Position numbers and translations under genes: made by a program. The notes under the pieces were generated by a model that made no database searches, was not told the DNA's origin, and worked only from the letters and a program-made list of their open reading frames with translations. Positions 1 to 8,734 of a stretch of DNA of 11,825 bases are shown here, one piece after another. Positions within the stretch are counted from its first letter, which is position 1. Each line of letters starts with the position of its first letter. Source of the stretch: Promethearchaeota archaeon (GTDB lineage: Archaea > Asgardarchaeota > Lokiarchaeia > Sigyniarchaeales > SOKP01); contig JBHLOI010000085.1 in NCBI GenBank assembly GCA_048940645.1, forward strand, positions 1-11,825. Direction: 5' to 3'.

Positions 1-518
1 CTTCTATTTTCAAACATCTTATAAGGAGTTGTGCTACTAGTCGCCCCATAAAGCGTGGTTGGAGCCCCTTGACCACCAGTCATAGCATAAATACTATTAT
101 TAAAAATGAAAATGATACAATCAAGGTTTCTGCGACAAAGATGAATAAAATGATTACCGCCAATCCCTAAGCAATCCCCATCACCAGAGAAAATAATAGG
201 CTTCATATTTGGATTTGCCATTTTTATTCCTGTAGCAACCGCAGGAGCTCTACCATGAAGAGCCAAAATCTTCTGTATTTTTGCATGAATTAATAATAGC
301 ATTTGACTATAGCAACCAATTCCGATTATAGTTGGATATAAATGAGGATCTAGTTTCTTATCTTCAAATATCCGGGTGAAAATATGACCTATTATACCAT
401 ATCCACAACCAGAACAAAATCTTGTAGCAAAATTTTTATACATACTTCCTCCATATGAAAAGATTACATAAGGATGTTCTGGTTTCTCATTAGGAAGCAT
501 TCGACCAATATCTGGCAT
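1..518 (-). CDS. 2-oxoacid:ferredoxin oxidoreductase beta (TPP-binding) subunit, KorB-like; 3' end runs off the window
   Basis: Not in the ORF track; translated by hand from ATG at 516-518, which overlaps the alpha stop as TAATG: MPDIGRMLPNEKPEHPY...RFCSGCGYG...IGIGCYSQ...ALHGRAPAVATGIKMANP...FSGDGDCLGIGGNHFIHLCRRN...NNSIYAMTGGQGAPTT. It has the CxGC Fe-S motif, HGR, and the GDGD...NN TPP motif. A GGAGGTG SD lies just upstream, inside the alpha gene. Confidence 0.95.
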   Translation of the reverse strand, partial: MPDIGRMLPNEKPEHPYVIFSYGGSMYKNFATRFCSGCGYGIIGHIFTRIFEDKKLDPHLYPTIIGIGCYSQMLLLIHAKIQKILALHGRAPAVATGIKMANPNMKPIIFSGDGDCLGIGGNHFIHLCRRNLDCIIFIFNNSIYAMTGGQGAPTTLYGATSSTTPYKMFENR

Positions 519-1693
519 TATTTAGCCACCTCCCTGATTATATTTAAAATGTCGTCTGGATGGTGAAATTCACAAACCTTAGGTATCTTTATAACAGGAG
601 TGTCAAGTTTAGTTACTCTTTCAACTTGTTCTGCAACATATCCAGTATAGTTTAACTCAGGAACGATTACTGCCCTTGCATCTTTAACAACTTGTTTAAC
701 CTGTTTATCAGGAAAGGGCCAAACAGTAACCAATCTAAAAATACCTACTTTGATATTTTCTTTTCTAGCAATATCGACAGCTCTATAACTTGAGCGTACT
801 GGTAAGCCATAAGCAATAATTACAATATTAGCATCATCTAATTTGTATTGCTCAGTAATACAGATTTTATCTTTATTTTTATTTATCTTATCCATAATTG
901 CTTCCATAAATTGCATAGGTTTAGGGGTTGGTAATCCTTCATAATTATGAGGTTGATGAAGAAACATCCCTGGACAATAGTCAGTTCCCATTTGAGGAGG
1001 TTTAGGGATAATTAATTTTCCTGTTATATCATCTTTATAGGTAAATTTCTTAACAAATTGATCAGGCGGAGGTAATTCTCTATTAATAACTCTTTTTAGA
1101 ATTTCTTCTTTTGAAGGGATGTTAACTATCTCATGTAAATGACCTAAATATGCATCCGATAAAATATATACAGGACATCGGTAAGTTTCAGCATAATTAA
1201 AGGCTATTATTGTTAAATCATAAAGTTCTTGACAAGACATTGGTGCGAGTGCAATTACTTGAAATTCTCCATTTCCAGAAAAACGCACCAAACCTATATC
1301 GTTATGATGTGGTTCTGTTACGAACCCAGTTCCAGGGCCATTTCTCTGGACATCACAAAAAACAAACGGTACTTCCAGATTTGCAGCCATAGATATTGTT
1401 TCTACCATCAATGATAACCCCGGTCCCGACGTAGCAGTCATTGATTTTACGCCTACTAAAGAGGCTCCTATTACCGAGTTAATAGAAGCTAGTTCATCTT
1501 CCATTTGCATACAAACTCCTCCAACTTGGGGTAATCTTACCGCTAAATGTTCAATTACTTCTGTACTGGGAGTTATTGGATATCCACCAAAAAATTTTAA
1601 TCCTGATGACATTGCTCCTTCTGCCATTGCAACATTTCCCATCATCAAATGCCTTCCTTCTGGTAAAAATCTTTTTCCATTTCCATTATTCAT
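518..1693 (-). CDS. 2-oxoacid:ferredoxin oxidoreductase alpha subunit (KorA-like, no fused gamma domain)
   Basis: Motifs MGNxAxAEGA, GYPITPSTE, QMEDELAS, TATSGPGLSLM and DVQRxGP, plus a C-terminal transketolase-C-like domain (VWPFP, VPELN). SD GGAGGG at 1701-1706. Confidence 0.95.
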   Translation of the reverse strand: MNNGNGKRFLPEGRHLMMGNVAMAEGAMSSGLKFFGGYPITPSTEVIEHLAVRLPQVGGVCMQMEDELASINSVIGASLVGVKSMTATSGPGLSLMVETISMAANLEVPFVFCDVQRNGPGTGFVTEPHHNDIGLVRFSGNGEFQVIALAPMSCQELYDLTIIAFNYAETYRCPVYILSDAYLGHLHEIVNIPSKEEILKRVINRELPPPDQFVKKFTYKDDITGKLIIPKPPQMGTDYCPGMFLHQPHNYEGLPTPKPMQFMEAIMDKINKNKDKICITEQYKLDDANIVIIAYGLPVRSSYRAVDIARKENIKVGIFRLVTVWPFPDKQVKQVVKDARAVIVPELNYTGYVAEQVERVTKLDTPVIKIPKVCEFHHPDDILNIIREVAK

Positions 1694-1706
1694 TTCATAT
1701 CCCTCC

Positions 1707-1979
1707 TTATGTTTTGGCTTTTTCAGCTAATTTGTCCTCCCCCTCTTCTAAAACATAAATACACCATTCAGGGCATCCAAATTCACATCTCCGACAACCA
1801 GTACAATATTTTGCTTTATCCTCTTTTACTCTTGGAATATAAGCAACTCTCATATTCAATTCATCTCCAATTTCTAAAATACCTGTTGGGCATACAGACA
1901 CGCATATAGCACACTGGTCTCCGCCACATCTATTTTTATTAAAAAATAATGTAAATTTTTTTTCCTTATTTTCCACCAA
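1707..1979 (-). CDS. 2x[4Fe-4S] ferredoxin-like delta subunit of the oxidoreductase (KorD-like)
   Basis: Cluster motifs CGGDQCAICVSVCP and CTGCRRCEFGCP. First gene of a delta-alpha-beta operon. Start is TTG (1977-1979) or the adjacent GTG. Confidence 0.9.
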   Translation of the reverse strand: MVENKEKKFTLFFNKNRCGGDQCAICVSVCPTGILEIGDELNMRVAYIPRVKEDKAKYCTGCRRCEFGCPEWCIYVLEEGEDKLAEKAKT

Positions 1980-2039
1980 TTTTGGAATTTTTAAATCAAC
2001 TCCAAAAAAATTCTATTGAATTAAAAAATAATTTAATTG

Positions 2040-2052
2040 TTATAAATTTCAG
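2040..2052 (-). promoter_or_regulatory. Putative archaeal BRE/TATA promoter of the oxidoreductase operon
   Basis: Minus strand reads CTGAAA-TTTATAA about 60 nt upstream of the ferredoxin start, with a GGAGTTGA SD-like site at 1996-2003 in between. Confidence 0.45.
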
Positions 2053-2064
2053 TTTACTTCAAAA

Positions 2065-2077
2065 TAAGTATTACTTA
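2065..2077. promoter_or_regulatory. 6-1-6 inverted repeat TAAGTA-T-TACTTA in the divergent promoter region
   Basis: Perfect inverted repeat seen directly, lying between the two candidate TATA boxes. Function is inferred. Confidence 0.3.
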
Positions 2078-2108
2078 AAATAACTTAAGGCAAAATAATT
2101 AAAACCTT

Positions 2109-2118
2109 TTTTTAAATT
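2109..2118 (+). promoter_or_regulatory. Putative TATA box for a leaderless CCG/LutB-like transcript
   Basis: TTTTTAAATT centred about 23 nt upstream of ATG 2136, and no SD precedes that ATG. Confidence 0.35.
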
Positions 2119-2135
2119 GAGATTATATCTTTATT

Positions 2136-2879
2136 ATGAATAAAATAATTTTCTTAGGTTGTTTATCAAGTACTAAATATAAAAATACGTGCGAGAATGC
2201 GAAAAAAATTATTAAATTTTTAGATAATGATTATCAGGAGTTGAAAAATCCTCCTTGTTGTGGTGCTCTTGCTCATCAAATCGTATCCGTCGAAGAAATA
2301 AGAGATCACGTAAAATATGTAAATAATTGGTTTAAAGATAATGATATAAACCAATTGATTACCATATGCGCAGGTTGCTATAATTATCTTACAAGATATT
2401 ATCCTGAACATTTAGGAATAGATTTTAATATTAAAGTAATGCATTTGCTCCAATTTATAAATAAACCTGAAAATTTGAAAAAGTTGAACCTAAAATATTC
2501 AGGTAAAAAATTAAAAATATATTATCATGATGCATGTCATTTGAGAAATGCAGAGATCCCAATTATTGATGAACCACGAAATATTATTAATTCAATCCAA
2601 GGAAACATTGTTCTCGGTGAAATGGAAAACAATAGAATAAATTCTCTTTGTTGTGGAGCAGGAGGGGGAGTATATTCAATTTTTAAAGAAAATAGTGATT
2701 TCAGTTCTAAATTAATTTTTGATCAAATGAGAATGCCTAAAGCCTTGCTTACCGCTTGTCCCTTTTGTTATACTTCTTTTATAAGAATTAAGGAAGAAAA
2801 TAATATTAAAACGCCTGTAATTAAATTCGAAGATTTCATTTTAAAATTAATGGAAGGAGTTGATCCTATAAGTGTCTGA
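2136..2879 (+). CDS. Two-CCG-domain (cysteine-rich) Fe-S protein, LutA/GlpC/HdrD-C-terminal-like
   Basis: First CCG domain: FLGC, PCCGA, ICAGC. Second CCG domain: YHDACHL, LCCGAGGG, TACPFC. Overlaps the next gene. Confidence 0.9.
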   Translation: MNKIIFLGCLSSTKYKNTCENAKKIIKFLDNDYQELKNPPCCGALAHQIVSVEEIRDHVKYVNNWFKDNDINQLITICAGCYNYLTRYYPEHLGIDFNIKVMHLLQFINKPENLKKLNLKYSGKKLKIYYHDACHLRNAEIPIIDEPRNIINSIQGNIVLGEMENNRINSLCCGAGGGVYSIFKENSDFSSKLIFDQMRMPKALLTACPFCYTSFIRIKEENNIKTPVIKFEDFILKLMEGVDPISV

Positions 2880-4176
2880 AAAGGGAAAGGAATTATATAA
2901 TGAAATTAAAGACAAATTGGAAGAATTGCAAATTGAAAATTCAGCTTATGCTCAATTTAATGAAATATGGAAAATGGCATGTGCTATCAAATATAAATCA
3001 TATGATTTAAGGTATCTTTATGAAGATACAAGTAGGGAATTTGTTGATGAACATAAAGAGCGATTAATTAAAATGAAAGATGATTTTATTGAAAACTTAG
3101 ATAAATATGTGGCAAAATGTATTAAAGTAATGGAAAGCACAAATCACTTTAAAGTATATCTCGCAAAAACTAATGAAGAAGCTCAAAGAATTTTTATGGA
3201 AGAATTAGGCAATAACAAAGTTATTTATAAGTCAAAGTCTTTAGAGGCAAAAGATGCGGGGATAGTGGATATCCTTAAAAATAATAATATAACTATAAAA
3301 GAAACTGACTTAGGAGATGTATTCTGCCAACTATTAGAATATGATTATCCGAGTTTTACTTTAGGTCCTGGAATACAATTTACTCCCGAAGAGATTGTCG
3401 CCAAAATAAAAGATAAGTATGGTGTTGAAGTCAAGCCTGAAGCTGAATCAATCGTTGATTATTTTAGAAATACATATCGGAAAGAATTACTTAATGATGT
3501 AAAAGTATCATTAACTTCAGCAAATGCTATATCAGCACAAGATGGATCAATTGTTTTAGTAGAAAATGAAGGAAATATTAGTATTATTACAAGAGCAACA
3601 GAAAAGCATATAGTAGTGACGGGAATCCAAAGAATAGTCCCAACCGTTTTTGATGCTTTGCTATGCGCTAAAATACAAGAAAGAATTATAAATGTTGATG
3701 GTGCTTATATTAGTTTTATTTCAGCTCCTTCAAATACTTCAGATGTTCAAGGACACCGTGTATTCGGAATGTACGGAGCTAAGGAAGTAGTTGTAATTCT
3801 TGTTGATGAATGGCGTATGAAAGCTGTAAAAGAAAACCTTTTCTATAAGGATATGTTGAAATGCATCGGTTGTAAAAGCTGTGATCTTGTATGCACTGCC
3901 TCTAGAGCTTTCGGAAATATTTATGCTTCTAAATATGGAATTGGTGCTATAAATATTGTTCGTGATTATATTCATAACGGTATTGAAGCAGCAGTCACTG
4001 ATGGTTTGTTCCTATGTACTGGATGTGAAAATTGTACTAACTGGTGTCCAACAGGAGTTGATCTAGCAGAAATGATAAGGCAATTGAAAAGAATCGCGAT
4101 TGATAAAGACCTATGTCCTCCACCATTAAATGAATACAAAGAAAAAATTTTTAAGGATAAAAATCCTTTCAAATAA
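2872..4176 (+). CDS. LutB/LldF-like LUD-domain protein with C-terminal 2x[4Fe-4S] domain (putative 2-hydroxy-acid dehydrogenase subunit)
   Basis: LUD-family motifs KSKS, ETDLG, SANA..DGSIVLVENEGN and HIVVTG..RIVP; ferredoxin motifs CIGCKSCDLVC and CTGCENCTNWCP. GTG start with GGAGTTGA SD; translationally coupled to the CCG gene. Confidence 0.88.
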   Translation: MSEKGKELYNEIKDKLEELQIENSAYAQFNEIWKMACAIKYKSYDLRYLYEDTSREFVDEHKERLIKMKDDFIENLDKYVAKCIKVMESTNHFKVYLAKTNEEAQRIFMEELGNNKVIYKSKSLEAKDAGIVDILKNNNITIKETDLGDVFCQLLEYDYPSFTLGPGIQFTPEEIVAKIKDKYGVEVKPEAESIVDYFRNTYRKELLNDVKVSLTSANAISAQDGSIVLVENEGNISIITRATEKHIVVTGIQRIVPTVFDALLCAKIQERIINVDGAYISFISAPSNTSDVQGHRVFGMYGAKEVVVILVDEWRMKAVKENLFYKDMLKCIGCKSCDLVCTASRAFGNIYASKYGIGAINIVRDYIHNGIEAAVTDGLFLCTGCENCTNWCPTGVDLAEMIRQLKRIAIDKDLCPPPLNEYKEKIFKDKNPFK

Positions 4177-4217
4177 ATTTTAATTATTAATCGATAACTA
4201 CTTCTTAGGTTAAATCA

Positions 4218-5402
4218 CTATGAATGAAAAATCTGAAATGGAGCAGCTGAACACCTCCATATTGCTATATCTTCAAAACCTAATATTTCTGCATAAGTTT
4301 TTTCACCATTACATGTCTCCTTTAATTTTTGCCACAATATATTAGCAATATCTTTAACTGCTTTATTTTCAGTAATTATTTTACTAGCATCGACGTCAAT
4401 ATTGCTTGCCATCCAATCACATGTTTTTGGATTACCACAGATCTTAATGACAGGCGTTACAGGGTTACCACAGGGACTTCCTCGACCAGTTGTCATTATT
4501 ATAGCTTGAGCACCTGCAGCTGCTAATCCCGTCATGGATTCAACGTCCAAACCAGGTTCTATCATTAGCCATAATCCTTTTCCTTTAGGAGCTTCAGAAT
4601 ACTCTAAAATCCCGTTAATAGGAGCCTTTCCCGCTTTTGCAATGGTTCCTAACGACTTTTCTTCAATTGTGGTTAAACCACCTTCTATATTACCAGGTGT
4701 TGGTTGTATCCCCCGAAAATCTATTCCAAGTTTCACCGTATTTTCTAAAAACATATTAATTGTTGTATTTATTTTCTTAGCAATTTTTTCATCAGCAGCT
4801 CTTTTTATTAGCAAGTGTTCAGTTCCAATCCATTCAGTAAATTCGGGTAAAATTGAAGTTCCCCCTAATTCAATTATCTTATCTGAAACAATTCCTACGG
4901 CTGGGTTTGCTGAAATCCCAGAAATCGAATCTGAACCTCCACATTCTAAACCTAAAACTAGATTTGAGAAATCAAAAAATTCTCTTTTTAATTCTTTAGC
5001 TTCTTCAGCCATCTGTTCCCCAATTTTAATTCCTTTTTCTATTGCAGCTTTGGAACCACCCTGAACATCTTGTAAATTGAAAAAATCAACAGGCTTTTTT
5101 GCTCTTTTGATATTTTTAGCAATTAACTTGTTAGTTAAATTTTCACACCCTAAACCTACAACAATAGCACTATAAATATTTGGATTATTAGCTAATCCGA
5201 CTAGAGTTCTCTGAGTGTAAGAAAAATCTGGTCCGAATTGACCACATCCTAAAGGATGCGTTATGGCGACAGCATTTTCAATTTGATTTGCAATTTTCTG
5301 TGCAACATGGTTAACACAAACTACTGAAGAAATAACTGCGATTTTATTTCTAATACCCACTTTACCTTTTGGCCGCTCATAACCTAAAAATTCTTCGCTC
5401 AT
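4218..5402 (-). CDS. UxaA/GarD/SuyB-family dehydratase, large (catalytic) subunit
   Basis: Motifs GYxRxxGxVGIRN, HPLGCGQ, NPN..VVGLGCE, ECGGSD..SG..ANPAVG, PTPGNIEGGLTTIEEKSLG and TTGRGSPxGNPVxPVIKI. ATGA overlap with the SAF gene; TAG TGA double stop. Confidence 0.93.
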   Translation of the reverse strand: MSEEFLGYERPKGKVGIRNKIAVISSVVCVNHVAQKIANQIENAVAITHPLGCGQFGPDFSYTQRTLVGLANNPNIYSAIVVGLGCENLTNKLIAKNIKRAKKPVDFFNLQDVQGGSKAAIEKGIKIGEQMAEEAKELKREFFDFSNLVLGLECGGSDSISGISANPAVGIVSDKIIELGGTSILPEFTEWIGTEHLLIKRAADEKIAKKINTTINMFLENTVKLGIDFRGIQPTPGNIEGGLTTIEEKSLGTIAKAGKAPINGILEYSEAPKGKGLWLMIEPGLDVESMTGLAAAGAQAIIMTTGRGSPCGNPVTPVIKICGNPKTCDWMASNIDVDASKIITENKAVKDIANILWQKLKETCNGEKTYAEILGFEDIAIWRCSAAPFQIFHS

Positions 5403-5686
5403 TTTTTGATCTCCTCAAGATAGTGACTTTTTATGTTATGCGTGTGTATCCAATCGCCAGCTTTAATTTTTTGTGTGGCAATTCCTATTATTTCTCCATA
5501 CTTCTTAATTAATTCACCTTTATTTATATCTATTAATGCAAATTTGTGCCCCATTGGAATCTCTTGACTCAATTTTATAAGATTCTGGTTTATCTCAATT
5601 ACCCGAGCTTTTGAAATATTCTCCAGTGCGGTAGCACAGTTATCCTCGGGATTCATGATAATAAAATTATCCTTTTTTCTTCGCAT
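5399..5686 (-). CDS. SAF-domain small subunit of the split UxaA-family dehydratase (SuyA-like architecture)
   Basis: Motifs DNCATAL, IPMGHKFAL..I..G..I.KYGE.IG.A and WIHTHN. Coupled to the large subunit. Confidence 0.92.
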   Translation of the reverse strand: MRRKKDNFIIMNPEDNCATALENISKARVIEINQNLIKLSQEIPMGHKFALIDINKGELIKKYGEIIGIATQKIKAGDWIHTHNIKSHYLEEIKK

Positions 5687-5731
5687 TTTAAATCCATCAG
5701 ATAAATTATCATTGTTAAATTAAAATAGACA

Positions 5732-6109
5732 TTATAGCACTGCAATAGCACTTATTTCTATTAACATAGAAGTTAATGGTAAATTTGATACTTCTACTGT
5801 AGCTCTTGCTGGATAAATTTCTGTAACTCCATTATCATTAAAAAACTTTTCATAAGTCCTGTTCATTTTCCCAAAATCTTCCATATTTCTTAGAAAGACA
5901 GTAGTATTAACTATATTAGCAACTTTTCCTCCGGCAGTTTCAACAATTTTCTTGATATTATCTAGTGCTGTATATGTCTGGTCTTTAATATCTATTGTTC
6001 CTTGCGCAGTTCCTTGACCTGAGATAAATAATAAATTTCCAGTTTTTATACCAGGAGTATAAGGACCAGCAACAGGAGTTCCGGGATTAATATTTTTAAT
6101 ATCTACCAT
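5732..6109 (-). CDS. ridA: RidA/YjgF-family enamine/imine deaminase
   Basis: Motifs GPY, LFISGQ, TTVFL..M.DF..MN..Y, PARATVEV (catalytic Arg retained) and IEISAIA. Canonical SD GAGGTGA at 6120-6126. Confidence 0.92.
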   Translation of the reverse strand: MVDIKNINPGTPVAGPYTPGIKTGNLLFISGQGTAQGTIDIKDQTYTALDNIKKIVETAGGKVANIVNTTVFLRNMEDFGKMNRTYEKFFNDNGVTEIYPARATVEVSNLPLTSMLIEISAIAVL

Positions 6110-6119
6110 AAATAATTTT

Positions 6120-6126
6120 TCACCTC
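6120..6126 (-). promoter_or_regulatory. Shine-Dalgarno site GAGGTGA for ridA
   Basis: Reverse complement of TCACCTC, 10 nt upstream of ATG 6109. Confidence 0.75.
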
Positions 6127-6131
6127 AATAA

Positions 6132-7211
6132 CTAATAATTTTTTCCTCTTGCTAAAATTTCCCATTTATCAAAGACTTTGTTATTTTTTATAATAGTAAA
6201 GAAATCATATAGATTTACAGTTGTACAAATATGTGAAGGGTATAATTCAACCTTTTGCCCTATTTCAAAAGTGTCTTTAAGACCTGCTCTAAAAATAGAG
6301 TGTTCTTCTGTCATTACTTTAACCTTGCATTTGGGATAGTTCTTGAAAATTGGATTTCCATTGTCATTGGTAGCAGCTTTTAATCCTGTATCAACAGTAT
6401 ATAGTCTTTTTCCAGGATTATTGGTGACTGTCCCTAAAACAGTAGCTCCGATATTAAATTCTGGAGATACTCTATAATAATGTTCATCATTGAAAATATA
6501 GGTGCCAGGTTGAATTTCGGTTATCCCTTTGTATTTTGCTGAAAATTTGTAAGTAACAGTATTACTTGCTGTCAAATAATTTACATTAAATTCATTATTA
6601 TTTAATAGATCTCTTGTATCTACTAATAACTTTAGACATTCTTCTGTTTGCTTTTTTCTTAATTCAGGGTCTATCATTGAAGTTAAATGACCCTCATAAC
6701 CTTGAAGTCCTACTAACTTTAAATTTGGTTGCTTTAAAATAAAGTTCGCAAGTTTTAATGCTGATTCTCCAGGTTCTACTCCATTTCTTCCTAAACCAAC
6801 ATCTACTTCAATTAAAATCTCTAATTTAACATCATTTTTAGAAGCAATTTTATTTAAGTCAAAAACATTCTTTTCTGAATCAACACAAACTCTTACTAAT
6901 GACTTTTTATTGAGTTCTACCAATCTTTTAATTTGAGTTAAATTGACGACTTCATTTGCGATTAAAATATCATTAAAGCCGTTTTCAGCGAATACTTCAG
7001 CTTCACCAACTCTTGCAACACAAATCCCATTAGCTCCTGCTTCGAGTTGCATCTTTCCAATAATTGGGCATTTATGAGTTTTAACATGGGGACGTAATTT
7101 TACATTATTTTTTTTAGCAAAATTTGCCATTTTCTCAATGTTTTCTTTCATTATATCATAGTAGACTAAAAGAGCAGGTGTTGAGATTTTATCCCTCCAA
7201 GTTTCTTCCAA
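6132..7211 (-). CDS. Fold-type III PLP enzyme of the DSD1/D-threonine aldolase family (probable D-serine or beta-hydroxy-D-amino-acid dehydratase)
   Basis: Motifs TPALLV, LRPHVKTHK (PLP lysine), EVDVGLGRNGV, GYEGH, EIQPGTYIFND, EEH and PSHICTTVN. TTG start at 7209-7211. Confidence 0.9.
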   Translation of the reverse strand: MEETWRDKISTPALLVYYDIMKENIEKMANFAKKNNVKLRPHVKTHKCPIIGKMQLEAGANGICVARVGEAEVFAENGFNDILIANEVVNLTQIKRLVELNKKSLVRVCVDSEKNVFDLNKIASKNDVKLEILIEVDVGLGRNGVEPGESALKLANFILKQPNLKLVGLQGYEGHLTSMIDPELRKKQTEECLKLLVDTRDLLNNNEFNVNYLTASNTVTYKFSAKYKGITEIQPGTYIFNDEHYYRVSPEFNIGATVLGTVTNNPGKRLYTVDTGLKAATNDNGNPIFKNYPKCKVKVMTEEHSIFRAGLKDTFEIGQKVELYPSHICTTVNLYDFFTIIKNNKVFDKWEILARGKNY

Positions 7212-7387
7212 AATTTATAACCTTTCAAATAAGAATATTAGAATAGTGATTTATTAAAACATAAAAATCTAATTAAATTTATTGTGAATATAATTTCTAG
7301 ATAGAAATAGTATATCTATAAAATAGAAAATAATATTTGATACTATTCTATATATAATCTAACTCATTCAGAACTACTAGTGATAAT

Positions 7388-8734
7388 ATGCCAAAATTTT
7401 CTAAAGAACCATTAAGGGGTATGGAAGATTTTTACCCCGATGATTTACGTCAATTGAATTGGATAATCGATACTATAAGAGATGTTGCAGAGCGTTATGG
7501 TTATGAAGAGTTTGAAACTCCTCGATTAGAGCCAATTGAAATCTTTGCTGCAAAATCTTCTGATGAATTAGTAAATGAGCAATCTTTCATAGTTGAGAAG
7601 AAGAAAGGAGAAAAATTGATTTTAATTCCTGAACTCACTCCATCTTTAGCTCGGATTGTTGCTAAGAAAAGCCAAGAATTAAAAAAGCCTATCAGATGGT
7701 ATTCGGTTCCAACATGTTATAGATATGAAAGACCTCAAAGAGGCAGAAGGCGTGAATTTAAACAAATTAACATAGATATACTTGGTGATGATAGTTTATA
7801 TGCAGATCTAGAGATTTTTAATATTATTGTTGATATTTTTAAAGAATTCGGTGCTACTCCGGCACAATTTCAAATATGTTATAATAACCGACGTTTTATA
7901 GATTCGGTATGTAATATTATACTAGAAATGAATAAGAAAAAGTTACCAATACTCTACAAAGTACTCGATAAATCTGATAAGATGGATGAGGATGATTTTG
8001 AAAAATACGTGATTGATACTTTTCAAGACGAGACAATAATTCAAGGTATCTTCAAACTAAAAGATTCAAATAGTGTAAGTAATTTATTAGAGAAGTTTGA
8101 TAATATACCTGAAGGGTTTTATAATTCCAATGGGTATAAAGAATTAATCACATTTGAAAAGTACTTAAAAGAAATAGGGATTTCGGACTACTGTACTTTT
8201 TCATCCAGCGTTGTGAGAGGCTTAGATTATTATACTGGAATTGTTTATGAAGTTTTTGATACTGGCAAAGAAAATATAAGAAGTATTTTTGGTGGGGGCC
8301 GATATGATGACTTATTATCGTTATTTTCTGATGAAAAGATATCTGGTACTGGTTTTGGGATGGGTGTTTTAATGCTAAACTTATTTTTAGAAACCTATAA
8401 CTTAATTCCTAAAGAAGTTAGAGAAAAAGACTATACCGATACAGTCTACATCGCCTCAATCGACGAAACTGTATCATTATACGCTTTTAAAATTGGTCAA
8501 ATTATCCGTAATGAGGAAATTCCTTGTTTAATTGATTTTAGGTTTAAAAATTTGAAGAATCAACTTAGTAAAGCAAATGAATTAGGTGTTTTGATTACCT
8601 TAATTATTGGAGCTAAAGAAATGAATAAAAATGAAGTAACAGTAAGAAATATGAAAACTGAGAAACAGGTAACAATTAAAATCGATAAACTTATAGAAGA
8701 ATTCTACAATATTTTAGATGAATTCGCCGAATAA
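7388..8734 (+). CDS. hisS: Histidyl-tRNA synthetase
   Basis: Motifs RGMEDF, ETPxLE, PELT, YRYERPQRGRRREFKQ (motif 2), VRGLDYYTG, GGGRYDDL and GFGMG, plus a C-terminal anticodon-binding domain (absent from HisZ). TATA-like TATATATA about 30 nt upstream. Confidence 0.97.
   Translation: MPKFSKEPLRGMEDFYPDDLRQLNWIIDTIRDVAERYGYEEFETPRLEPIEIFAAKSSDELVNEQSFIVEKKKGEKLILIPELTPSLARIVAKKSQELKKPIRWYSVPTCYRYERPQRGRRREFKQINIDILGDDSLYADLEIFNIIVDIFKEFGATPAQFQICYNNRRFIDSVCNIILEMNKKKLPILYKVLDKSDKMDEDDFEKYVIDTFQDETIIQGIFKLKDSNSVSNLLEKFDNIPEGFYNSNGYKELITFEKYLKEIGISDYCTFSSSVVRGLDYYTGIVYEVFDTGKENIRSIFGGGRYDDLLSLFSDEKISGTGFGMGVLMLNLFLETYNLIPKEVREKDYTDTVYIASIDETVSLYAFKIGQIIRNEEIPCLIDFRFKNLKNQLSKANELGVLITLIIGAKEMNKNEVTVRNMKTEKQVTIKIDKLIEEFYNILDEFAE

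Follow-up and report, generated by a model that had tools for sequence, protein, structure and literature searches.

Among known prokaryotes, the Asgard archaea are most closely related to eukaryotes, and their energy metabolism, in which the oxidation of 2-oxoacids is central, has been reconstructed mostly from genomes. In the scheme of Imachi et al., Asgard amino-acid catabolism converges on pyruvate or 2-oxobutyrate, which are oxidised by 2-oxoacid:ferredoxin oxidoreductases (OFORs) to acyl-CoA (PMC7015854). In Desulfovibrio vulgaris, the luo operon (DVU3025-3033: por, lactate permease, D-lactate dehydrogenase, pta, ack, LldGH) places a pyruvate:ferredoxin oxidoreductase (PFOR) and a LutB/LutA-type L-lactate dehydrogenase on one transcript (PMC4481167), while Yin et al. 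reported the assimilation of 13C-lactate by Loki-3 and the presence of LutA/B only in Loki-3 and not in the MK-D1 group (PMC8027215). Here we analyse a stretch of 11,825 nt (the window), which is the whole of contig JBHLOI010000085.1 (C38) in a 3.83-Mb, 89.6% complete metagenome-assembled genome (MAG) of a Promethearchaeota (Loki-type Asgard) archaeon. The archaeon is probably of the Loki-3 type, and the closest public contigs come from Promethearchaeota/Promethearchaeia MAGs. The window carries genes for an OFOR, a LutA/LutB-like pair, a pyridoxal-phosphate (PLP) enzyme with a RidA-type partner and a split SAF-UxaA dehydratase. With moderate confidence, we read it as a lineage-specific catabolic neighbourhood of independently moving modules, in which LutAB-OFOR and PLP-RidA are plausibly coupled and SAF-UxaA is separate.

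The original prediction, made on this sequence, proposed that three entries (the PLP dehydratase with RidA, the split UxaA and the CCG/LutB pair) funnel into one OFOR, and knew of no described pathway with these genes. Two of these entries, the oxidation of hydroxy acids and the dehydration of D-hydroxy amino acids, are plausibly coupled with the OFOR, but the UxaA entry is not supported. The claim of novelty was overstated: a literature search returned no paper on precisely these genes together, but the outline of such a design is familiar from the luo operon, from the lactate use of Loki-3 and from the Asgard 2-oxoacid scheme (PMC4481167; PMC8027215; PMC7015854). The MK-D1 (Prometheoarchaeum) scheme follows the same funnel logic, leading from amino acids through 2-oxo acids and OFORs to acyl-CoA; it differs in using the L-serine/threonine dehydratase TdcB, a fold-type-II enzyme, and makes no mention of a DSD1-like enzyme, LutAB or UxaA. 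Similarly to the luo operon, the Asgard locus encodes a LutB/LutA-type Fe-S lactate dehydrogenase-like pair together with an OFOR, in line with a route from hydroxy acid through 2-oxo acid to acyl-CoA. In contrast to luo, the Asgard CCG and LutB genes are split and in reverse order, the genome is without a LutC/LldG-like LUD protein, the OFOR is of the four-subunit Kor/Oor type and not a single-chain PFOR, and a FrhB-PyrK fusion and PLP-RidA are attached instead of pta, ack and a lactate permease.

The open reading frame (ORF) listing and the Pfam and NCBIfam profile scans of the window proteins confirmed all nine catabolic genes in position and family, contiguous and in three units with the divergent and convergent layout that had been proposed. 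The LutA-like CCG protein (2136..2879, forward strand, 247 aa) contains two stretches of PF02754, and the LutB-like protein (2872..4176, forward strand, 434 aa) combines a PF02589 LUD domain with PF13183 Fer4_8 for 2x[4Fe-4S]; the two genes overlap by 8 nt. The pair has the two-CCG architecture of LutA and the LUD plus 2x[4Fe-4S] architecture of LutB known from LutABC/LldEFG of Bacillus subtilis and Shewanella. The CCG protein corresponds to the C-terminal region (470-682) of LdhH model NF045670 and the LutB-like protein matches its N-terminal part at 175 bits, the two together covering both halves of the fused LdhH model, while LutB scores 196 bits with TIGR00273 (cut-off 445). The difference from LutABC lies in LutC, which was not found: PF02589 matches LutB alone in the 89.6%-complete genome, and no further LUD gene stands beside CCG-LutB in the related loci examined. 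LutB is present in 71/126 genomes of family f1 and in 0/13 genomes of family f2, a distribution that is consistent with the published restriction of LutA/B to Loki-3; a linkage of LutA/B to a specific OFOR was not found in the passages of PMC8027215 that were consulted.

The OFOR genes are divided from the CCG gene by a divergent intergenic region of 156 nt (1980..2135). On its far side, on the reverse strand, lie the genes of the delta subunit (1707..1979), an OorD-like 2x[4Fe-4S] ferredoxin-like protein with Fer4 family matches (NF007205 OorD at 2e-15), of the Kor/Oor-type alpha subunit (518..1693, 391 aa, POR_N + PFOR_II) and of the thiamine pyrophosphate (TPP)-binding beta subunit (3..518; PF02775 TPP_enzyme_C, TIGR02177 PorB_KorB), of which the N-terminal 172 aa are encoded before the contig end cuts the gene. 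The proposed oxidoreductase unit is thus present, but incomplete in the window. An exact overlap of 77 nt joins the window start (1-77, read as its reverse complement) to the start of C59, another contig of this genome; the two contigs are thus neighbours, and the OFOR operon runs on into C59, which supplies beta residues 148-301, the gamma subunit, a FrhB and PyrK-like fusion of 605 aa with FAD/NAD(P) and 2Fe-2S parts, and three tandem EamA transporter genes. Once the window and C59 are joined, delta, alpha, beta and gamma form a single operon with the four subunits expected of a Kor/Oor enzyme, in an order that recurs in relatives, and the FrhB-PyrK fusion could serve the OFOR as an outlet to NAD(P) or F420. 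C59 additionally encodes a small QueG-like Fe-S protein.

The original prediction had called the OFOR divergent. Its alpha subunit is an ordinary Kor/Oor-type protein, which matches 1YD7 at E 1e-76 and the 2-oxoglutarate synthase 8YS5 at 3e-65 in the PDB. The best model is the generic 2-oxoacid:acceptor model NF006412 (398 bits, cut-off 411), followed by 291 bits with the OorA model and 113 bits with the PorA model, and every substrate-named model stays below its cut-off; delta and gamma match the OorD and OorC models. The genome encodes seven POR_N paralogues, and given the six others (three PorA-like, two gamma-alpha fusions and one IOR) we count the window OFOR as a putative extra enzyme among them.

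The second module consists of a fold-type-III, metal-dependent PLP enzyme of the DTA/DSD1 family (6132..7211, reverse strand, 359 aa, PF01168 Ala_racemase_N + PF14031 D-ser_dehydrat) and a RidA-type enamine/imine deaminase (5732..6109, reverse strand, 125 aa, PF01042 at 1e-29). The nearest PDB matches of the PLP enzyme are the D-threonine aldolases 7DIB and 4V15 and BhcC 6QKB (1e-53 to 1e-55), compared to 1e-20 for the D-serine dehydratase 3ANU and 4e-21 for 3WQC, and the BhcC model gives 235 bits against a cut-off of 690. The metal site, H327-I-C329, aligns with the H-x-C of chicken 3ANU, in which His and Cys are zinc ligands, and with that of 3LLX, whereas the aldolases 4V15, 6QKB and 7DIB read H-x-D at this site; Ser178 takes the position of the aldolase base His193 (AxDTA numbering). 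A metal site of His347/Asp349 in the aldolase versus His/Cys in the dehydratase, together with the absence of His193 from the dehydratase, has been described (PMC4401734). The H-x-C is invariant in 22 orthologues, and the PLP-lysine motif RPH[VLI]KT.K is found in 20/22, the remaining two being truncated. The PLP gene is always paired with a canonical RidA; the window protein scores 97.5 bits with TIGR00004, just under the cut-off of 106, and keeps the P-A-R arginine, which we take to be the conserved active-site residue.

The H-x-C site, the lack of a His193 equivalent and the constant, arginine-keeping RidA partner make the PLP enzyme better read as a dehydratase that would release an enamine/imine than as an aldolase, and the DSD1-type dehydratase/RidA pair of the original prediction is supported by the same features. 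With the DSD1 family (chicken 3ANU, yeast Dsd1p) and D-threo-3-hydroxyaspartate dehydratase the window enzyme shares fold type III, the C-terminal D-ser_dehydrat domain and His-x-Cys, it is likewise without the aldolase base, and the adjacency of RidA fits an enamine/imine product; it differs from them in an overall sequence that is much nearer to the D-threonine aldolases and BhcC. An aldolase reading, in which the aldehyde would go to an aldehyde:ferredoxin oxidoreductase (AOR) and the glycine to Gcv, was prompted by the aldolase top matches in the PDB and by AOR and GcvP as neighbours in relatives, and was rejected on the grounds of H-x-C, Ser178 and the constant RidA. Two side observations concern this gene. 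One PLP orthologue (G147:C22:162293-163378) has one in-frame TAA stop, possibly a pseudogene or a sequencing error. In many species of the window's genus (L037:12853-14055 and 18 other loci) a distant fold-type-III PLP protein of 400 aa, ~27% identical and with no H-x-C/D motif in its C-terminal region, replaces the DSD1-like gene beside RidA.

Linkage was followed by mapping the window proteins onto 28 regions from relatives (each up to 20 kb) and onto 39 public loci; in addition, ~130 genomes of the family were searched for LutB, OFOR alpha and PLP. CCG-LutB adjoins the OFOR in six genera (g1, to which the window belongs, g21, g22, g26, g28 and, in two genomes, g18). The layout is divergent in g1, g21, g26 and g28 and co-directional in g22; the proposed entry of LutAB at the OFOR is supported by this recurrence in two orientations. 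The entry of PLP-RidA is supported by two further genera, L104 (g21) and L113 (g22), where PLP-RidA directly follows the FrhB/PyrK gene and ends the same operon-like array. In L113 the genes CCG-LutB-OFORd-a-b-g-FrhB/PyrK-PLP-RidA share one strand and are spaced by <=93 nt, PLP-RidA joining the end of the OFOR-FrhB/PyrK array across gaps of <=46 nt; the gene set of L104 is identical, but its LutAB is divergent. Elsewhere PLP-RidA lies near UxaA or near neither. The tightest operon-like packing joins LutAB, OFOR with FrhB/PyrK, and PLP-RidA, and excludes UxaA.

This packing bears on the reading that the window is a chance neighbourhood, in which unrelated catabolic genes came to stand beside hisS through inherited order and local deletions and each serves its own pathway. 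LutAB stays beside the OFOR after inversion, and a tight co-directional packing such as that of PLP-RidA in L113 is unusual for unrelated genes; we consider a chance neighbourhood unlikely, although the synteny takes in HisRS and downstream housekeeping genes, for any two modules there are genomes in the family that keep them apart, unrelated inserts differ between species, and the genome has six other OFOR-type paralogues.

The coupling of LutAB, OFOR and PLP-RidA, which we favour, has several observations against it. LutAB and OFOR lie apart in most g18 and in all sampled g20 genomes (349 kb apart in one closed 2.3-Mb genome), which means that the coupling is not obligatory, and PLP is also separated from both in most g18/g20 genomes. 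The gene-neighbourhood analysis across relatives, proposed as a check in the original prediction, has accordingly a divided outcome, since the linkages of LutAB-OFOR and of PLP-RidA recur, but are missing from these genomes, and UxaA is unlinked (see below). In L085, L091 and L092, RidA is directly upstream of SAF-UxaA, beside GcvP1/P2, with no PLP gene nearby. Adjacent genes are gained and lost together whether coupled or not, and the sampled genomes are close kin. With LutB far below its equivalog cut-off and LutC missing, the hydroxy-acid oxidase activity is putative. As for the OFOR, the characterised members of the Kor/Oor clade mostly use 2-oxoglutarate, and the three PorA-like paralogues in the genome are better suited to pyruvate. 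Finally, in g18 (L105-L112) CCG-LutB is divergent to genes for the large and B12-binding subunits of methylmalonyl-CoA mutase and for MeaB, followed by those for a short-chain dehydrogenase/reductase and a radical-SAM protein. As a separate observation, the occurrence of RidA-SAF-UxaA without PLP raises the possibility that RidA serves the UxaA-type enzyme itself.

The neighbourhood in g18 could be tied to a 2-oxoglutarate-centred module, in which the OFOR would produce succinyl-CoA and the LutAB-like pair would oxidise 2-hydroxyglutarate or another dicarboxylic hydroxy acid. Among the substrate-named models and structures the alpha subunit is indeed nearest to 2-oxoglutarate enzymes (OorA versus PorA scores and 8YS5, as given above), delta and gamma are OorD- and OorC-like, three PorA-like paralogues are encoded elsewhere in the genome, and both mutase subunits and MeaB stand divergent to CCG-LutB in g18; all these substrate-named scores, however, are below the equivalog cut-offs, and the generic model is the best one. 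To our knowledge, no characterised LutAB acts on 2-hydroxyglutarate. Moreover, published stable isotope probing data tie LutA/B of Loki-3 to the use of lactate (PMC8027215), and we regard the 2-oxoglutarate module as very unlikely.

The third module is the split dehydratase, with a large catalytic subunit of the UxaA/GarD superfamily (4218..5402, reverse strand, 394 aa, PF04295 + PF20629, i.e. GD_AH_second + GD_AH_C) and a small SAF-domain subunit (5399..5686, reverse strand, 95 aa, PF08666), the genes of which overlap by 4 nt. The stop codons of LutB and UxaA converge, 41 nt apart. The large subunit aligns with GarD 6U7L over residues 5-377 (E 2e-52), and its Cys29, 53, 86 and 154 align with the GarD cysteines and are invariant in 63/63 orthologues; the SAF protein matches residues 3-79 of the galactarate dehydratase model. 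The SAF, GD_AH_second and GD_AH_C domains and the four Cys that define the superfamily (COG2721) are all present, as in the altronate, galactarate (6U7L), D-idonate and D-arabinonate dehydratases. The corresponding four Cys (134/173/208/276 of D-arabinonate dehydratase) have been proposed as iron ligands and are common to the sugar-acid dehydratases, not to SuyAB, and the superfamily has predicted heteromeric sugar-acid members, e.g. L-fuconate dehydratase (PMC6336799). The window enzyme differs from the characterised dehydratases in that its SAF domain is a separate polypeptide and in that its Asgard neighbours are often RidA and a tungsten-type AOR; more distant relatives adjoin a PfkB kinase or a major facilitator superfamily (MFS) transporter, as in sugar-acid pathways.

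A small SAF and a large UxaA-like subunit of similar sizes are also found in SuyAB, the (2R)-sulfolactate sulfo-lyase, here compared by its description, and the original prediction had included cysteate/sulfolactate among the possible substrates. The four Cys, which are reported to be lost in SuyAB (PMC6336799) and are kept here, speak against this option. There is no sulfite exporter or sulfolactate dehydrogenase gene within the window, and with all four Cys kept and no sulfonate genes in the window SuyAB was dropped as the leading option for the split UxaA; lysis of sulfolactate by the UxaA unit appears unlikely, the four Cys being typical of sugar-acid dehydratases. A TPP enzyme, a class-III aminotransferase and an AOR stand beside SAF-UxaA in some relatives. 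These neighbours could hint at sulfonate or amino-acid chemistry. The product expected of a sugar-acid dehydratase, a 2-keto-3-deoxy sugar acid, would not be an obvious substrate of the OFOR. Searches for UxaA homologues and related loci returned only Asgard relatives under generic names ('UxaA family hydrolase', 'altronate dehydratase large subunit'), and a UxaA orthologue was found in 0/14 genomes of family f2.

The linkage of the UxaA unit points in the same direction as its residues. In five genomes from four other genera (G124, G129, G074, G147 and G113) LutAB adjoins the OFOR and the UxaA orthologue (74-83% identity) is on another contig. The neighbours of UxaA were counted in a 6-kb radius at 53 distinct loci: SAF is present in 49, RidA in 29, AOR in 25, LutB in 23, OFOR alpha in 22 and HisRS in 19, and neither LutB nor OFOR in 30/53. 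Apart from the TPP enzyme, aminotransferase and AOR surroundings, SAF-UxaA occurs with PLP-RidA and MFS, Gfo/Idh/MocA and IlvD-like genes, and in distant relatives (47-54% identity) it lies beside an MFS transporter or a PfkB sugar kinase. A lack of linkage of the three units in related genomes had been named as what would refute the proposal, and for the UxaA unit this lack is observed. As a side observation, AOR is the next commonest neighbour of SAF-UxaA after SAF and RidA, across contexts (e.g. L043:7124-8962, L037:10971-12809).

Inside genus g1 the order is OFOR(d,a,b,g)-FrhB/PyrK-EamA, CCG-LutB, UxaA-SAF, an insert, RidA-PLP and hisS, some species being without one block or having extra inserts, and full contiguity of the nine genes is restricted to a few close relatives within this one genus. 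The hisS gene for histidyl-tRNA synthetase (7388..8734, forward strand; TIGR00442 at 342 bits, above the cut-off) lies outside the pathway and was used as a synteny control and as the boundary marker of the neighbourhood. Both hisS and the genes beyond it, which in the window encode NifU-like, radical-SAM and terpene-cyclase-like proteins, are equally conserved in position within g1, and HisRS adjoins the block in several other genera too; much of the contiguity in g1 hence reflects a gene order that was inherited. The insert that separates SAF from RidA is empty in the window and its closest relatives, holds an AOR gene in most species, or holds hydantoinase/oxoprolinase-like genes; one genome has molybdopterin oxidoreductase genes that separate UxaA from LutB. 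The window genome is without AOR at this locus, its best AOR match (56% identity) being on contig C57. A trio of hydantoinase/oxoprolinase A, hydantoinase/oxoprolinase B and acetone-carboxylase-gamma-like genes was seen between RidA and SAF at L039:3996-8860 (also L040 and L041).

These patterns decide how the funnel as originally proposed is to be weighed, i.e. the reading that the three units are entries of one pathway, giving the same R-CH2-CO-COO- acid (pyruvate or 2-oxobutyrate) for the OFOR to turn into acyl-CoA. Its chemistry is feasible for C3/C4 dihydroxy acids, the nine genes are contiguous in the window and its closest relatives, PLP-RidA-SAF-UxaA is packed tightly in the manner of an operon both here and, in another context, in L069, L071, L073 and L097, and RidA accompanies SAF-UxaA in more than half of the loci counted. 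Yet UxaA is unlinked from LutAB/OFOR in the five genomes and 30 loci mentioned, the equal synteny of HisRS makes the contiguity largely inherited, AOR, hydantoinase-like or molybdopterin genes come between the units in most relatives, and the four-Cys pattern with the PfkB/MFS neighbours of distant relatives indicates longer sugar acids. A single three-entry pathway is distinctly improbable in our view, and the UxaA unit most likely owes its place here to descent and local deletion and, to judge from its residues, acts on sugar-type acids. Every module can move independently.

From the gene identities, residue patterns and linkage patterns observed we infer substrates, coupling, an electron route and co-expression as follows. 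The LutA/LutB-like pair would be a 2-hydroxy-acid oxidase working without LutC, with lactate as its most likely substrate. The OFOR would take over the 2-oxo acid from LutAB and convert it to acyl-CoA and reducing power, and the FrhB-PyrK fusion could pass the electrons to NAD(P) or F420, with the EamA transporters encoded downstream, a design resembling the luo operon. The PLP enzyme, a predicted metal-dependent D-beta-hydroxy-amino-acid dehydratase, would form with RidA a 2-oxo acid and ammonia, and plausibly feeds the same OFOR, because in some genomes it belongs to the same operon-like array. The split SAF-UxaA protein, a predicted iron-dependent dehydratase of the sugar-acid type, would generate a 2-keto-3-deoxy acid in a separate pathway step and would have been brought here by genus-specific rearrangement; in most relatives an AOR gene is kept between it and PLP-RidA. 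We tentatively add, as a possibility that we rate well below this modular reading, that an L113-type operon, not described before, may act as one unit in Loki-3-type Asgard archaea, in which both 2-hydroxy acids and D-beta-hydroxy amino acids released from necromass in the sediment would be converted to acyl-CoA, the fusion would deliver electrons to NAD(P)/F420 instead of free ferredoxin, and the split UxaA would be a supplement that one genus has acquired as an option.

The non-coding parts of the locus gave few regulatory clues. A TTATAAAT-like TATA element in the intergenic region between OFOR delta and CCG is conserved among those relatives that share the divergent layout. An operator shared by the divergent regions 1980-2135 and 7212-7387 was looked for by eye; no common palindrome was found, and only AT-rich TATA-like elements are visibly conserved. 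In three close relatives (L031:5992-7098; L059, L095) a 368-aa ORF without a Pfam match splits the first of these regions. TTG is the initial codon of the longest ORF both for OFOR delta (1979) and for PLP (7211).

Our results refine a scheme that was already known and do not add a system of a new kind. That genes lie side by side within one Asgard genus says little about a shared pathway, because hisS keeps its place just as well and the UxaA unit parts from the others outside the genus. What the locus would give to the lactate assimilation of Loki-3 is a set of concrete genes, LutA/LutB without LutC together with a dedicated OFOR that has a candidate NAD(P)/F420 outlet, and it also suggests the use of D-hydroxy amino acids by these archaea.

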